From Candidatus Wukongarchaeum yapensis (GTDB lineage Archaea; Asgardarchaeota; Wukongarchaeia; Wukongarchaeales; Wukongarchaeaceae), in assembly GCA_016840425.1 (NCBI GenBank), contig JAEOSI010000074.1, positions 1-9,463 on the forward strand: a stretch of DNA of 9,463 nt. Reading direction: 5' to 3'. Both the position numbers and the translations under genes were made by a program. Within the stretch, counting starts at the first letter, position 1. Each line of letters begins with the position of its first letter. Positions 4,044-9,463 of this stretch are shown here, piece by piece. A model generated the notes under the pieces. That model was not told where the DNA came from. It searched no databases and saw nothing but the letters and a program-made list of their open reading frames with translations.

Positions 4044-4709
4044 TTAGTAGCTTACCATGTTTCTAAGAAGCGAAAGTTGGCCATGTTTTGGCGCGCGCAA
4101 AATGCAAGAATCCAAATAACTTAAAGAGGCGCCCAACATATCTGTCCTGTATCCTCCCCCTAGAATTTCTGCGAATTCTAAAAACCACAAAATACTTTCC
4201 TTACGAAGCTCTTCTTTAAGAAAAACTACTAAATGCATCCTGTTACTTCCAGTCACTAACAACTGCTCCCCTAACATATTCAAACGAATAAATTTTTCTC
4301 CACTATCGGAAGCGTTCTCAAACCTTAATTCCAGAGTAGATACGTTTTGAGGCATGACTTCTAAAGGCGCAAAAGCATCATTATACTTTTTTTCCAAATT
4401 GTCTATTATAAGAACTCCTTTGAAATGGTTAAATCTAACATCTTTCACAAGCTCAGAATTCTCCCTAATCCACCTTTCCTCAACCTCTACCCTTCCCGGT
4501 TCAACCGACGTGATTCCCGCCGTATCTATTCCTCTTACAAAAAGATTCTTGTCCAAATAAAACGTTAGGGCGTGGGGCGGATCACCATGAACAAAAGTGA
4601 TACTCGTAGGGTCCACGGGAGAATTTTTAATCTCATCTTCATCAACTTCCACTAAAATTTTCTTATCACAAATTTTACAAAAAACTTCAACAGACTTTAA
4701 AGAAACCAC
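4044..4709 (-). CDS. Hypothetical protein: N-terminal CxxC-x26-HGxxxH putative Zn domain plus C-terminal alpha/beta domain (possibly longin/profilin-like)
   Basis: 221-aa ORF with GTG start and SD GAGGAGG at 4720-4726, 25 nt downstream of the GTPase stop. C11/C14/H41/H46 followed by LDKNLFVRG, a pattern I associate with Asgard proteins. The CDS is well supported, the fold is only inferred. Confidence 0.8.
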   Translation of the reverse strand: MVSLKSVEVFCKICDKKILVEVDEDEIKNSPVDPTSITFVHGDPPHALTFYLDKNLFVRGIDTAGITSVEPGRVEVEERWIRENSELVKDVRFNHFKGVLIIDNLEKKYNDAFAPLEVMPQNVSTLELRFENASDSGEKFIRLNMLGEQLLVTGSNRMHLVVFLKEELRKESILWFLEFAEILGGGYRTDMLGASLSYLDSCILRAPKHGQLSLLRNMVSY

Positions 4710-4719
4710 GGGAACTGAG

Positions 4720-4726
4720 CCTCCTC
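4720..4726 (-). promoter_or_regulatory. Shine-Dalgarno site of the GTPase-partner gene
   Basis: Minus strand GAGGAGG 10 nt before GTG4709, which supports polycistronic translation with the GTPase. Confidence 0.7.
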
Positions 4727-4734
4727 AAAAACTC

Positions 4735-5262
4735 CTATCGAAACTGAAACTGTTTCTGTCTTTTTTTAAGCATCCTCTCACTAATTTCCCTAAAAGCTTC
4801 ATAAACATTGAGATTCTCTTTAGAAGAAGTCTGAATAAACCCGCTTAAACTCCTTTTCTGTACGTATTCTCTTGCCACCTCTAACGAAACCACGCGGTCA
4901 CTCCTTAAATCCGCTTTAGTACCAATCAAAATAATAGGTATGTTATCCGTGCTTCCCCTTAAAATATCAAACCAGTCCTCCAGCTGTAAAAACGTTGAAT
5001 ATCTTGTCATATCAAAACACATTAACGCCCCTGCAGCCCCCCTGGCAAAATTAGGCAAAAGAACACGAAACTGTTTTTCTCCGCCGAAATCCCATATCTG
5101 AAGCTTTAATTTTTGATTATCTATATCGATAACTTTTGCACCAAATCCTGTTCCTATTGTCGCTCGTTGGTCAGAATATCTTCCATAACAGAAACGTTCC
5201 ACTAGACAAGTCTTTCCAACGCCGCCTTCCCCTGCCACAACAAGTTTTAAAACTAGAACCAT
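4735..5262 (-). CDS. Rab-like small GTPase (Ras superfamily)
   Basis: G1 GEGGVGKT, G2 ATIG, G3 WDFGGE, G4 TKAD, G5 TSSK. RabF-like motifs IGTGF, KLQIW, FARGA and CFDMT. No C-terminal Cys prenylation site. SD GAGGT at 5270-5274. Confidence 0.93.
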   Translation of the reverse strand: MVLVLKLVVAGEGGVGKTCLVERFCYGRYSDQRATIGTGFGAKVIDIDNQKLKLQIWDFGGEKQFRVLLPNFARGAAGALMCFDMTRYSTFLQLEDWFDILRGSTDNIPIILIGTKADLRSDRVVSLEVAREYVQKRSLSGFIQTSSKENLNVYEAFREISERMLKKRQKQFQFR

Positions 5263-5334
5263 TGATTAGACCTCAAATAGCCGCCCAAGTTATTTTAAAC
5301 CCTGAATTTTTTTGACAGATTTTATTTTATCCTT

Positions 5335-5402
5335 AGAAAAGTTATAATTTTAAACATATTTATTTTTCTGTAAGGTTAGTTTTACTGAGAAAGGTTATAA
5401 AA
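5335..5402 (+). promoter_or_regulatory. Tandem BRE/TATA-like direct repeat AGAAARGTTATAA
   Basis: AGAAAAGTTATAA at 5335-5347 and AGAAAGGTTATAA at 5388-5400 (one mismatch, 53 nt apart) in the 379-bp divergent intergenic region. Confidence 0.4.
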
Positions 5403-5628
5403 AAATTTTCATATTGTCAATTATCAAGTTCTAAAATAGAATCTCAAATAAGATGATAGCATAATATTCTAAAAATATTTTCAAATATTTCTCCGAAAAT
5501 AAGGTATAGTGTTTTTTTTAAAATAGTTTTATAACCAAAATATTTTAATTTTAACTGATCAATACCTTCTGTTATAGTTTTTTAAATTGTTAGAAAGTTG
5601 TTGATAATATGCAAATTTTCTTTTAATC

Positions 5629-5636
5629 TGAGGTCT
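5629..5636 (+). promoter_or_regulatory. Shine-Dalgarno site of the TRAP-beta-like gene
   Basis: TGAGGTCT before GTG5642. The same octamer precedes the divergent GTPase (minus strand 5268-5275). Confidence 0.65.
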
Positions 5637-5641
5637 CAGTA

Positions 5642-6253
5642 GTGAATCGGATGATCATGGCCTTGTTCATATGCTTTCTCGTGACAGGAAACATTTTTTT
5701 ACAAAATAGTAGCACTTCTAACTTTCAAGCAGTTAGTACAAGACAAACATTAGACATCCCCTTTCTGTCTTTAATGAAAACTTCTAATTCAACCTCGCCT
5801 GTTATGGGAGACATCGTAGTGATCCGGGTCAGTATCACTAATCATGGAAACTTTTCTGCAAGAAACGTTAACTGTACGGATCCGCCTTACCCTTCTTGGT
5901 TGTTTAAGGTCACTGGGAATCTCTGGCATTTCTACAAAGAGATCGCGGTAAATCAGACAGTTAATTATACGGTCGTCTTAGAAGCGATTAACGCTGGAAA
6001 TTATACCCTTCTGCCTTCGGAAGCCACATATTATAACGCTTCAGGGTCCACGATCTATAACGCTTTTTCCAACAGTCTCAAAATAAGAGTGTTGCTGGAA
6101 GAACCTGAGCCTCCTAAAGATTTCACCGAAGAATGGTATACTGTAGGCATTATTATGACGATCACAATTATGATATCGATAGTCCTACTATTTTTCTTTG
6201 AATTTCAAGCCTCAGGTTTGAAAATAAAAATCAGGAAAAAAAAGAAGAGATAG
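5642..6253 (+). CDS. TRAP-beta (SSR2)-like / BatD-DUF11-type Ig-fold type I membrane protein
   Basis: N-terminal hydrophobic signal segment, a beta-rich ectodomain with 8 N-X-S/T sequons, one C-terminal TM helix (WYTVGIIMTITIMISIVLLFFF) and a basic tail. By-eye match to human SSR2 as recalled: ITNHGNFSARNV vs IYNVGSSAALDV, IAVNQTVNYTVVL vs IAPASNVSHTVVL, WYTVGIIMT vs WAAFGVMT. Confidence 0.7.
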   Translation: MNRMIMALFICFLVTGNIFLQNSSTSNFQAVSTRQTLDIPFLSLMKTSNSTSPVMGDIVVIRVSITNHGNFSARNVNCTDPPYPSWLFKVTGNLWHFYKEIAVNQTVNYTVVLEAINAGNYTLLPSEATYYNASGSTIYNAFSNSLKIRVLLEEPEPPKDFTEEWYTVGIIMTITIMISIVLLFFFEFQASGLKIKIRKKKKR

Positions 6254-6414
6254 CAAATTAATACGACGAAACTAATTAATAACATATCATTTTTTATACA
6301 TTTAACTTCAATATTCACCATATTTGATTGATTCAATTTTTAGGTAATTTCTAAACCTTTTTCAATAATAAACCTAGGAAATCTTAAGGTTTTAAAGGAG
6401 ACGTAGATGATCTT

Positions 6415-7368
6415 ATGACACTTCGAGACATATTTGAAAAGAAGAAAAAGCCGAAATTTCTTTTTTTCGGCGGTAAAGGTGGCGTGGGTAAAACTTCCTG
6501 TTCAGCCGCAGCAGCACTTTACGCAGCTGAACAAGGTATTAGCACACTAATCCTTTCAACAGATCCCGCCCACTCATTAGGCGACTCTTTTCAGCAAAAA
6601 CTTAGCGGCAATCCTACCCCCATTGAAGGAGTGCCTAATCTAGAGGCTATAGAGTTTGATGTAAAGCAGAGTATGAAGGAGGCTGAAGATAAGTTAAGGA
6701 GCAGCGAGGAAACTTCTGAGGTCATGGCTCAGGCTGAAATGCTTGGTGTTACTGAAATGTTTGATACGACACCCCCCGGAGCTGACGAAGCTTTAGCTTT
6801 TAGCAAAATACTTGACTACATCGATGAACCAACCCATGAACTCATAATCTTCGACACGGCTCCCACGGGGCACACCTTAAGATTTCTTTCGCTTCCTGAC
6901 GTTTTTGATTCTTGGATAGGTAAGCTTATAATGCTTAGAATGCGCCTTTCAAGCTTTATAGGCACCATAAAAAAATTTTTTGGCCGTGGTGATGAAAAAG
7001 ACACTAGTCTCGAACAGTTAAAGCTCTTTAAAAAGCGTATCGAGGCTGCAAGACCTGAACTTAGTGATCCTAACAAAACCGAGTTCATACCTGTGCTTAT
7101 ACCCGCCCAGATGGCGATTTTTGAAACTGAGAGGCTATTACAAGCGTTATATGAATACGAAATACCTGTAAAACACGTAGTGGTCAACATGATAGCTCCC
7201 GATTCCCAAGATTGTGCTTTTTGTATGGCTCGGAAAAAAGTGCAGTCAGAATCCATACAAACTATAAAAGAGTATTATGAGGATTTTATACTCACGGAAG
7301 TTCCGCTTTTTGATACAGAAGTACAAGGTTTAGAAATGCTCCGTAAAGTAGCAAAAATCCTTTTTTGA
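6415..7368 (+). CDS. get3: Get3/TRC40-like (single-domain ArsA family) ATPase
   Basis: Deviant Walker A GKGGVGKT, STDPAHS, PGADEALAF, DTAPTGHTLRFL, FETERLLQAL and a CAFC (CxxC) motif followed by YEDF...PL...EVQG as in Get3/TRC40. Single ATPase domain, not the duplicated ArsA architecture. Confidence 0.88.
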   Translation: MTLRDIFEKKKKPKFLFFGGKGGVGKTSCSAAAALYAAEQGISTLILSTDPAHSLGDSFQQKLSGNPTPIEGVPNLEAIEFDVKQSMKEAEDKLRSSEETSEVMAQAEMLGVTEMFDTTPPGADEALAFSKILDYIDEPTHELIIFDTAPTGHTLRFLSLPDVFDSWIGKLIMLRMRLSSFIGTIKKFFGRGDEKDTSLEQLKLFKKRIEAARPELSDPNKTEFIPVLIPAQMAIFETERLLQALYEYEIPVKHVVVNMIAPDSQDCAFCMARKKVQSESIQTIKEYYEDFILTEVPLFDTEVQGLEMLRKVAKILF

Positions 7369-7460
7369 TGAAATAAAATTAAAAATTATTACACATTATT
7401 TTTTGTTAGGAAATATTATAGAACTCTTTTAACAATGATCATGGTGAGGCTGGCATTAGG

Positions 7461-7787
7461 ATGTCCGTTCCAGAGCAAATGCCATTATTACGTGTAGAAA
7501 AAGCTTTAGGCAAAATTTTGAAATCATTACTTTTCTCTAACAAGGAAATGAATAAAGAAGGGTTTGATGAACTCCAAAAAGAAATAGGTGAAATGATACT
7601 CAAAAAAGACATTTCCTATTTAGGACAGGTAAAAGAAAAGATTTCAAGAACAGAAGAAGAGATAAAAGAAGAAAGTCTATCTCAAGATGTTTATCAAGAG
7701 ATTTTAGCATCAATAAGCATCTCAATGATTGAAAGTATTGAACACCTTATATCCTGTGCTATGAACTATCTAACACGAGCTCAATAA
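7461..7787 (+). CDS. Hypothetical 108-aa, predicted all-helical soluble protein
   Basis: Fills the gap between the Get3-like and beta-CASP genes on the same strand. SD GGTGAGG at 7443-7449. E/K/I/L-rich amphipathic pattern with no recognisable motif. Confidence 0.75.
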   Translation: MSVPEQMPLLRVEKALGKILKSLLFSNKEMNKEGFDELQKEIGEMILKKDISYLGQVKEKISRTEEEIKEESLSQDVYQEILASISISMIESIEHLISCAMNYLTRAQ

Positions 7788-7858: not shown

Positions 7859-9256
7859 GTGATTTTAAGGTTTTTAGGCGGCGCCCAAGAAGTAGGAAGA
7901 TCCTGCATCTATGTAGAAACTAAAAACACTCGTTTTCTTTTTGACGCTGGCATAATGGTTGGCCAAACCGAAGGAAAAGAGGGAGGAATAGAGAAGAAGG
8001 GAGATATTTATCCTAGAGTAGAAAGTATTGATGAACTTGAAGCTCTGATACTTAGCCACGCCCATTTAGATCATAGTGGGTATGTTCCCCGCTTAGTTAA
8101 AGATTTAAAGGTTCCCTTTTATGCTACGCCTCCGACTCAAGACATCTCTGAAAAGTTATGGATCGACCATATCAGATTAAGTAAAAACGAAAGCAAAGCT
8201 ACTAACGGTAGTGATGATGAATCTACGCTTTATGAGTTAAATGATGTGCATTTTGTGCGAAAATATGCCCAAGATATTCGATATCGTGTAAAGACTAAGA
8301 TAGGTAGAGGCGAAGAAAAGGACGAATTTTGGCTGTACAGAGCTGGTCACATACTTGGTTCATCGATGATAGGGTTAAGGGTAGGGGGTCCTGGGGGGAA
8401 AATACTCCTTTATACTAGTGACATAAACACACGCCACACTCGGACATTACACCAATTAGATCTTAATTTGCCTCCGATAAATTATCTCATCGTTGAAAGT
8501 ACTTATGGCGCGCCTTGGGATCAGCATCCAAGTTTAAAAAAGATGGAAAAAGAGTTTTTAAAAGCTATAAAAACGACTATCGATGAGGGAGGAAAAGTCA
8601 TTATACCGGTTTTTGCTGTGGGACGTGCTCAAGAAGTTATGCTAACCATCGAAGCTTACATAAGTAGCAAATATCTCCAAGAAGTCCCGGTATTTATTGA
8701 CGGTATGATTCGCAAAATCAACAAGATTTATACACTCTATTGGGAATGGTTACGCCCAGAAATCCAAAAATCTATAAGATATACAGGGAAAAATCCGTTT
8801 AAGTCAAACATCTTTAGAACAGTCACTGATCGTGATGAACCTTTAAAAGAAGGAGAGCCTTGTATCATAACAACAACAAGCGGCATGCTTGAAGGAGGTC
8901 CTGTTATCCACTATCTCGAACATTTAGCCTCTGATCCCAAAAATTTAATCGCGCTTACAGGCTATCAAGTACAAGGTTCGCGCGGCCGCTCGCTTATGGA
9001 TGGAAAAAAAACTATTCAGTTGCCTAGCGGAGAAACAGTTAAGATTGAGAGCGAAGTAAAATTTTTTGATTTTAGCGCCCACGCTGACCAAGGTGGGCTT
9101 TTAAGATTTATATCCTCCTTAAAAAATTTAGAGCAGGTTTACATCGTTCATGGTGAAGGAAACAAACCCAAGCTTCTTGCTGAAAAAATAGAAGAAATAA
9201 GTGGCGCTGAAGTTTTTGTGCCTGGAATATGCGATCAATTTGATACAAAACGATAA
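7859..9256 (+). CDS. Metallo-beta-lactamase beta-CASP ribonuclease (CPSF73/aCPSF family, no N-terminal KH domains)
   Basis: GGAQEVGRSC, FDAG, HAHLDHSG, AGHILGS, YTSD, ESTYG, PVFAVGRAQE, SGMLEGG, FSAHAD and VHGE motifs. The protein starts directly at the MBL domain. GTG start. Confidence 0.92.
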   Translation: MILRFLGGAQEVGRSCIYVETKNTRFLFDAGIMVGQTEGKEGGIEKKGDIYPRVESIDELEALILSHAHLDHSGYVPRLVKDLKVPFYATPPTQDISEKLWIDHIRLSKNESKATNGSDDESTLYELNDVHFVRKYAQDIRYRVKTKIGRGEEKDEFWLYRAGHILGSSMIGLRVGGPGGKILLYTSDINTRHTRTLHQLDLNLPPINYLIVESTYGAPWDQHPSLKKMEKEFLKAIKTTIDEGGKVIIPVFAVGRAQEVMLTIEAYISSKYLQEVPVFIDGMIRKINKIYTLYWEWLRPEIQKSIRYTGKNPFKSNIFRTVTDRDEPLKEGEPCIITTTSGMLEGGPVIHYLEHLASDPKNLIALTGYQVQGSRGRSLMDGKKTIQLPSGETVKIESEVKFFDFSAHADQGGLLRFISSLKNLEQVYIVHGEGNKPKLLAEKIEEISGAEVFVPGICDQFDTKR

Positions 9257-9363: not shown

Positions 9364-9463
9364 ATGGTTTTGGAAAAAAGACTTCGTTTATTATTTACAG
9401 AAAAAGCCCCAGAAGAAACTGCTTTAATAAACCCTGAAACAATTGAAGAGCTAAGGATAGAGG
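9364..9463 (+). CDS. Truncated ORF (MVLEKRLRLLFTEKAPEETALINPETIEELRIE...), possibly double-psi beta-barrel / Cdc48-N-like
   Basis: ATG9364 with GAAGGT about 9 nt upstream, open to the window end. The A-L-I-N-P-E-x-x-x-E-L-x-I pattern resembles DPBB domains. Only 33 codons are visible. Confidence 0.5.
   Translation, partial: MVLEKRLRLLFTEKAPEETALINPETIEELRIE

Follow-up and report, generated by a model that had tools for sequence, protein, structure and literature searches.

The genes for a homologue of TRAP-beta (SSR2) and for a Get3/TRC40-type ATPase lie next to each other in the Asgard archaeon Candidatus Wukongarchaeum yapensis, and comparison with its relatives shows that the two form a unit that has been kept together by evolution. 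TRAP and Get3 stand for two insertion routes of the endoplasmic reticulum (ER) that are treated as separate in eukaryotes. The stretch of DNA analysed here (hereafter the window) is an entire contig of 9.5 kb (C48) from a metagenome-assembled genome of 2.16 Mb, made up of 277 contigs and 92% complete. GTDB assigns this genome to a separate, small class of three species outside Heimdallarchaeia; the NCBI labels of its relatives are Heimdall- or Hodarchaeota. The pair and the spacer between its two genes are arranged as follows:

5642-6253, + strand: TRAP-beta (SSR2) homologue, 203 amino acids (aa); Pfam PF05753, 8.6e-14
6254-6414: TRAP-beta/Get3 spacer of 161 bp, read from the sequence
6415-7368, + strand: single-domain Get3/TRC40-type ATPase of 317 aa carrying a CxxC motif; NCBIfam TIGR00345, 7.9e-92

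Conservation of the TRAP-beta/Get3 pair

Relatives were searched with the TRAP-beta protein and then with its profile, and 40 context loci were fetched and screened for the other proteins of the window. The TRAP-beta and Get3 genes were found within 1 kb of each other in 82 genomes belonging to three Asgard classes. The original prediction had viewed five co-localised genes of the window as a coordinated module and had proposed a synteny check across Asgard classes; that check shows that the adjacency of TRAP-beta and Get3 is not unique to this genome, whereas the remaining members of the proposed module (a Rab-like GTPase, its presumed partner and a small orphan) accompany the pair in the same genus only. 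The GTDB class Heimdallarchaeia, which holds the chromosome CP070665 (G111) labelled 'Ca. Heimdallarchaeota' at NCBI, comprises 83 species genomes, 77 of them with a strong Get3 match, and a comparison of coordinates, confirmed on fetched loci, gave a TRAP-beta/Get3 distance below 1 kb for 74 of these 77. The pair is co-directional in all three genomes of the window's own class, and it is present in five of the six genomes of a third small class (that of genome G040), the sixth being cut at a contig end. The orientation of the two genes is constant inside each family and variable among families, so that three orientations occur overall:

family f4: co-directional, TRAP-beta then Get3, 29 of 29 genomes
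family f14: co-directional, 11 of 11 genomes
family f22: co-directional, 3 of 3 genomes
family f23 (e.g. locus L088 of Ca. Hodarchaeum mangrovi): divergent, 20 of 20 genomes
family f24: convergent, one testable genome
family f25: convergent, 10 of 11 genomes

The gap between the two genes is -4 to 20 bp in families f14, f22 and f2, and outside the window's family it ranges from -4 to about 150 bp. All open reading frames (ORFs) within ~7 kb of the pair were clustered for 25 loci plus the window, drawn from 10 families, and no clusters other than those of Get3 and TRAP-beta spanned more than four families. The flanking genes have been fully replaced between families, and single-gene inversions have left the pair adjacent, with identities of 38-53% for Get3 and ~20-30% for TRAP-beta. 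Retention of the pair through inversions and turnover of its flanks, at such low identity, argues for selection on proximity. The adjacency could instead be a neutral relic, i.e. an ancestral neighbourhood that has not yet been broken and involves no functional coupling. This would fit the convergent order in f24 and f25, where no obvious regulatory benefit is apparent, as well as the several Asgard lineages that hold both genes unlinked and the so far conjectural nature of any interaction between the genes. However, a relic sits less easily with a pair that survived the complete turnover of its flanks at ~40-50% (Get3) and ~20-30% (TRAP-beta) identity, that stayed adjacent through inversions of single genes, and whose reading frames overlap or nearly overlap in f14 and f22. 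We regard it as an unlikely alternative, though one to be taken seriously.

A wide prokaryote sample of 80 Get3/ArsA loci was also drawn with the Get3 alignment, and a TRAP-beta-like ORF was located within 4 kb in only four of them, all Heimdall- or Hod-labelled. The loci of this sample that come from Thor-type and other Asgard-type archaea, DPANN, methanogens, haloarchaea and bacteria had no such ORF within 4 kb of Get3/ArsA, and a by-eye check of the Thor-type, DPANN and methanogen loci revealed nothing consistent in the way of another single-pass membrane gene beside Get3. The methanogen Get3 loci that were fetched differ from the window in having no adjoining TRAP-beta-like gene. The link to Get3 likewise distinguishes the archaeal TRAP-beta gene from the eukaryotic one, and we know of no eukaryotic counterpart of this gene link. 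Candidates for TRAP alpha, beta and gamma have been described as encoded by Heimdall-type and Loki-type archaea (Eme et al. 2023, PMC10307638; Lewis and Hegde 2024, PMC11186639; Carilo et al. 2024, PMC11417166), remote-homology methods having been needed for the published Asgard candidates (PMC10307638, PMC11186639). These three papers contain no mention of Get3 or of the TRAP-beta gene neighbourhood, and no description of the TRAP-beta/Get3 linkage was found in the searchable literature. Both proteins are already known in Asgard archaea, and it is their arrangement that is undescribed in that literature.

Identity of the two proteins

The membrane protein is a TRAP-beta homologue and not a generic DUF11 surface protein. 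The assignment had been proposed as TRAP-beta-like, and PF05753, Foldseek and a profile search now agree on it, DUF11 being far weaker. The protein scores 51.8 bits against PF05753 (TRAP_beta; cut-off 22.4), the match covering profile positions 18-166 of 178 with the membrane helix included, and the DUF11 model of Pfam scores 28 bits (3e-6). All of the nine orthologues tested, whether linked to Get3 or not, passed the PF05753 cut-off. An AlphaFold model obtained with 13 orthologues as input (mean pLDDT 81.7) consists of helices at residues 2-20 and 164-191 and a beta-sandwich at residues 42-151. Comparison of the fold with the PDB by Foldseek returned TRAP-beta chains of ribosome-Sec61-TRAP structures as the top five matches (E 4e-11 to 4e-10), while the sixth-ranked match was five orders weaker (1.6e-6) and CARDB reached 3e-5. 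A profile of the orthologues run against the PDB retrieved human and canine TRAP-beta at ~3e-12, the next match being at 0.07, and the alignment spans the membrane helix, in that the human TRAP-beta helix with its LPSIGIP motif is matched to the archaeal helix. The window protein has a signal-peptide-like N-terminus, one Ig-like beta-sandwich, eight N-x-S/T sequons in the ectodomain, a C-terminal transmembrane helix and a polybasic cytosolic tail of 17 aa, 8 of which are K/R; the model and the sequence features together give it the type I topology of TRAP-beta.

Eukaryotic TRAP-beta (PDB 8B6L chain F and 8B5L chain v) shares with the archaeal protein the signal peptide, the Ig-like domain with sequons, the C-terminal membrane helix, whose motif contains proline, and the short, basic tail, and it is the best match both by profile (3e-12) and by fold (E ~1e-10, target TM-score 0.65-0.69). 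It differs in that it shares only ~20% identity with the archaeal protein, in that the alpha and gamma subunits were undetected in the archaeon with Pfam models, and in its location, which is the ER, whereas the archaeal homologue would sit in the cell membrane. Two further observations concern its relatives. Genomes of the class of G040 encode two TRAP-beta-like paralogues (L036, L037, L038 and L040 versus L044-L047), of which the unlinked one matches PF05753 far better (2.7e-14) than the Get3-linked copy (5.2e-5). In family f25 (L059-L061) the Get3-linked TRAP-beta-like protein, whose gene is convergent with Get3, is ~500 aa long, with 17 sequons and a second Ig-like domain.

Get3 proteins of archaea were recognised more than ten years ago. 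Judged from its sequence, the ATPase of the window is a Get3 and not an arsenite-pump subunit, in agreement with the Get3-like assignment made originally. It matches ArsA_ATPase of Pfam (1.2e-91) and the NCBIfam model GET3_arsA_TRC40 (TIGR00345, 7.9e-92), and it aligns end to end with the archaeal Get3 structures 3UG6 (M. jannaschii) and 3ZQ6 (M. thermautotrophicus) at ~1e-82 and with eukaryotic Get3/TRC40 structures at 1e-59 to 1e-50. E. coli ArsA (1F48), on the other hand, aligns to residues 12-169 only (1.5e-35), and the ArsA model TIGR04291 gives 144 bits against a cut-off of 650. Over its full length, the helical client-binding subdomain included, the ATPase is thus closer to Get3/TRC40 than to ArsA. 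Three motifs are invariant in 15 orthologues, namely the deviant Walker A (GKGGVGKT), the DTAPTGHT of switch II and the CxxC. The last of these, which in Get3/TRC40 binds zinc at the dimer interface, is formed by C267 and C270 and is aligned with the CDFC motif of M. jannaschii Get3 (3UG6). The window protein shares its single ATPase domain, its deviant Walker A motif and its CxxC zinc motif with the two archaeal Get3 proteins of known structure; eukaryotic Get3/TRC40 also aligns in full, and binding and targeting of tail-anchored proteins are predicted for the window protein. E. coli ArsA shares the P-loop ATPase fold and the DTAPTGHT signature, but it has two domains that arose by duplication (~590 aa in all) and its gene belongs to an ars operon, ArsA being typically encoded with arsB/ACR3, arsD and arsR, whereas the window ATPase has one domain with CxxC. 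A Pfam scan of the window revealed no ars genes near the ATPase, its neighbours being TRAP-beta, an orphan and a beta-CASP RNase. An ArsA identity was rejected on these grounds, i.e. the single domain, the partial match to 1F48 and the absence of ars neighbours. The window ATPase is the sole full-length Get3 of the genome.

It could be argued that the eukaryote-like reading of the locus is an annotation artefact and that the two genes encode a generic DUF11/CARDB surface protein and an arsenite-pump ArsA. The DUF11 and BatD models of Pfam do score above or near their cut-offs, public records annotate the TRAP-beta orthologues as 'hypothetical' or 'BatD family protein', and PF05753 also matches a Methanosarcina protein. 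Nevertheless, TRAP-beta is the best match by at least five orders of magnitude in both fold and profile comparisons, membrane helix included, and the ATPase combines a single domain carrying the Get3 CxxC with a partial ArsA match and no ars genes nearby, which leaves this explanation hardly tenable.

Neighbouring genes and intergenic regions

The ORFs, the two spacers of 379 and 161 bp and the twice-occurring octamer described in the original prediction were all recovered at their positions. Besides the pair, the window contains the following features:

4044-4709, - strand: zinc-ribbon orphan (the presumed 'partner'), 221 aa; ORF with no Pfam or NCBIfam match
4735-5262, - strand: Ras-superfamily GTPase, Rab-like, 175 aa; PF00071, 1.3e-40
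5263-5641: AT-rich divergent intergenic region of 379 bp between the GTPase operon and the TRAP-beta gene
5268-5275, - strand: TGAGGTCT, Shine-Dalgarno (SD)-like site ahead of the GTPase start; exact octamer match
5629-5636, + strand: TGAGGTCT, SD-like site ahead of the TRAP-beta start; exact octamer match
7461-7787, + strand: small orphan, 108 aa; ORF starting 92 bp after Get3
7859-9256, + strand: beta-CASP metallo-beta-lactamase RNase; Pfam Beta-Casp, RMMBL and Lactamase_B

All five genes from the zinc-ribbon orphan to the small orphan are under purifying selection, with dN/dS values of 0.09 to 0.43 relative to a sister species of the same genus. The GTPase, a member of the Ras family of Pfam, had been called Rab-like, and Rabs indeed dominate the best 60 PDB matches listed, all of which are named Rabs except two with generic titles; Rab14, Rab43, Rab2 and Rab11 lead. 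Its best solved relatives (Rab14, PDB 1Z0F; Rab11; Rab1/Ypt1) match over the whole G domain at 1e-36 to 1e-30. Unlike these Rabs, it has a Glu in place of the catalytic Gln in its G3 motif (DFGGEK against DTAGQE), a G4 motif reading TKAD rather than NKxD, and a tail beyond the G domain that is devoid of cysteine and hence of a prenylation motif.

The 221-aa orphan starts 25 bp downstream of the GTPase gene, and its status as a partner of the GTPase rests only on this spacing. Neither Pfam nor NCBIfam gave a match, and leads from the Atlas were all below 0.9. The protein is composed of an N-terminal zinc-ribbon-like domain of ~65 aa (CxxC ... HGxPxH ... YLDKNLxVRG), in which C11, C14, H41, D53 and R59 are invariant, and of a lineage-specific C-terminal part. 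It has only four close relatives (86-95% identical), and an exhaustive HMMER search added 54 distant matches that carry the N-terminal domain, 53 of them carrying only that domain. In the structural model the N-domain has a pLDDT above 90 and the remainder, the C-terminal two-thirds, below 50; a fold search gave nothing above Z 5.2, the best match of the N-domain being sarcosine oxidase delta (Z 3.9). Residues 1-66 correspond to a small beta-rich domain that Pfam does not cover and that recurs in otherwise unrelated metagenomic proteins of differing length, forming at least 54 clusters. Ten carriers of the zinc-ribbon-like domain showed no informative Pfam domains, and three carrier contigs had no annotated GTPase neighbour, most of the neighbouring genes there being without a Pfam look-up. 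Within the genome, one of the four genes with this domain adjoins a GTPase. As for the 108-aa orphan, NCBIfam and the Atlas gave no match and Pfam a single sub-threshold line; its orthologue in the sister species is 82% identical (dN/dS 0.43), and the gene is confined to the genus and is not found after Get3 in other families.

The original prediction amounted to a proto-ER module for membrane-protein targeting, in which the products of all five genes, from the zinc-ribbon partner and the Rab-like GTPase to TRAP-beta, Get3 and the small orphan, would act jointly. The five genes are adjacent across one divergent region, the first gene on either side has an SD-like octamer, and the arrangement is the same in the sister species. 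However, a Ras-like GTPase or the partner domain was found near the pair in only one of the 40 context loci, one from the same genus, and none of the remaining 39, which represent at least 14 families, has the GTPase, the partner domain or the small orphan; with 16 Ras-like ORFs in the genome, moreover, a GTPase beside any given gene is unremarkable. The octamer offers little help to the module either. TGAGGTCT does occur exactly twice in the window, each time a few bases ahead of a start codon, against an expected 0.24 copies, and two copies were attained in 3 of 200 shuffles. The sharing of the octamer by the two flanking genes was thus borne out in the window itself, but the sister species keeps only the 6-nt core TGAGGT, which makes it an ordinary Shine-Dalgarno-like core and not a shared regulatory octamer. 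We therefore hold the five-gene module to be very improbable: the Rab-like GTPase with the zinc-ribbon orphan, on one side, and the small orphan, on the other, are separate, genus-specific neighbours of the pair. Since the GTPase lies outside the unit, the locus gives no evidence for a coupling of membrane-traffic regulators to protein insertion.

The 379-bp divergent region is 84% identical to that of the sister species overall. A segment at ~5455-5610 is nearly invariant between these two species of the genus, exceeding the conservation at synonymous sites of the flanking genes (pS 0.17-0.42), and could contain elements of promoters or a small RNA that is not annotated; Rfam and tRNA scans detected no Rfam family and no tRNA in the window, the divergent region included. 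The 161-bp spacer (134 of 161 positions identical in the sister species) has a T-run directly past the TRAP-beta stop and the sequence AAGGAGA ~12 nt ahead of the Get3 ATG. In one metatranscriptome run, two genes were partly covered by short contigs, the GTPase gene at 4640-5074 and the Get3 gene at 6490-6930; none of these contigs bridged two genes, and they may stem from DNA carry-over.

Downstream of the pair, a beta-CASP/RMMBL RNase follows Get3, directly or within ~2 kb, in families f1, f2 and f10 (the window's class plus f10), and it does not follow Get3 in the Heimdallarchaeia families. A conserved gene of ~85 aa with the motif GI.DNSIATIR and no Pfam match recurs near the pair; in the window it occupies 9364-9463 (+ strand) and is cut by the contig end; full copies are present at L030:2945-3211, L031:12445-12702, L042:10035-10307 and L060:7769-8026, and a further copy lies on contig C190 of the window genome. 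In f1, f2 and f10 this gene comes after that for the beta-CASP RNase; in f25 its place is between TRAP-beta and Get3. The left half of the contig (810-3875, - strand) encodes a PTPS-family protein, the GTP cyclohydrolase FolE2, a radical SAM protein and a tandem-CBS protein, in a gene order that is the same in the sister species; this set looks like a pterin or 7-deazaguanine type of biosynthesis.

A possible role at the membrane insertion site

We favour, with a probability of roughly 60%, an explanation in which the TRAP-beta homologue and the CxxC-type Get3 constitute a two-gene unit that is kept for matched amounts of its products at one membrane-insertion site. The TRAP-beta homologue would serve SecYEG from the outside of the membrane, in the way that TRAP-beta serves Sec61, and Get3, going by its sequence features, would deliver tail-anchored proteins to the membrane. 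Both would be needed in matched amounts at a single site of membrane-protein insertion, and their genes would be kept together for that purpose. Where the gap is -4 to 20 bp this could be achieved by co-transcription or translational coupling, and in the Hod-type family by a shared bidirectional promoter region. Co-regulation of an outer-face accessory subunit of the translocon with a cytosolic targeting ATPase is our best guess, being the most economical reading.

Several points weigh against it. The pair's link is so far positional, and a physical or regulatory coupling is only putative. Convergent pairs, as in f24 and f25, are not co-transcribable, and in the window itself the T-run and the separate SD-like site in the 161-bp spacer mean that Get3 may have its own promoter, a caveat on co-regulation that the original prediction had also made from the spacer length. 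The families f17, f19 and f32 have unlinked TRAP-beta-like genes, with Get3 on other contigs, and there is the possibility, unlikely but real, that an ancestral adjacency was retained without function. Moreover, Pfam models gave no match to TRAP-alpha or TRAP-gamma in the 92%-complete genome, including the TRAP-gamma gene that the original prediction had listed for a search, so that a TRAP complex is here only conjectural. Finally, PF05753 scored above its cut-off in the control genome of Methanosarcina acetivorans, so the model is not strictly one of Asgard archaea and eukaryotes.

A different role for the TRAP-beta homologue would be that of a membrane receptor or tether of Get3, acting through its basic cytosolic tail and standing in for Get2/CAML where archaea have neither. 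We know of no experimental demonstration of an archaeal Get3 receptor. The conservation of the pair would suit such a role, as would the strongly basic tail of the window protein and the long tails in f4 (36-38 aa with 17-21 K/R). On the other hand, Get3-linked tails range from 4 to 38 residues and measure 4-9 aa in f22, f14, f2 and f24, a length that could not accommodate a docking site conserved among them. Basic residues past a membrane helix are already predicted by the positive-inside rule, unlinked paralogues have similar tails, and archaeal Get1-like (DUF106) and Get2/EMC6-like proteins (PMC8675477) offer a possible receptor. A complex prediction for a Get3 dimer with the membrane helix and tail of the TRAP-beta homologue scored 0.00, which counts neither for nor against binding. 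On balance a tail-based tether seems improbable to us, and as a general mechanism it is unlikely.

The membrane proteins expected to receive Get3 are Get1/Get2 (WRB/CAML) and, in archaea, DUF106/Ylp1 with an EMC6-like protein. The secY and DUF106 genes, which the original prediction had suggested locating, were both found, on contig C78, with secY at 4224-5363 (+ strand) and a DUF106/EMC3-like gene (Oxa1-superfamily, Get1-like) at 6411-6869 (+ strand), ~1 kb apart. The DUF106 gene is therefore on another contig beside secY, and the lasting neighbour of Get3 is the unrelated, single-pass TRAP-beta homologue. That two loci of the genome each pair a Sec-side with a GET-side component is suggestive, but it is not evidence of interaction.

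Beyond the matched-amounts explanation, the TRAP-beta homologue might be a working part of the Get3 pathway itself, within a combined SecYEG/Oxa1-type site where Get3 would unload tail-anchored proteins. This is a speculative and rather unlikely extension. If it were true, the co-translational (Sec61/TRAP) and post-translational (GET) routes into the ER would descend from one physically coupled machine, and the original job of TRAP-beta would have been that coupling. A TRAP-beta/Get3 pair that persists in Heimdall-type, Hod-type and allied Asgard archaea, which among archaea stand closest to eukaryotes, provides a testable lead on how archaeal Get3 may dock at the membrane.

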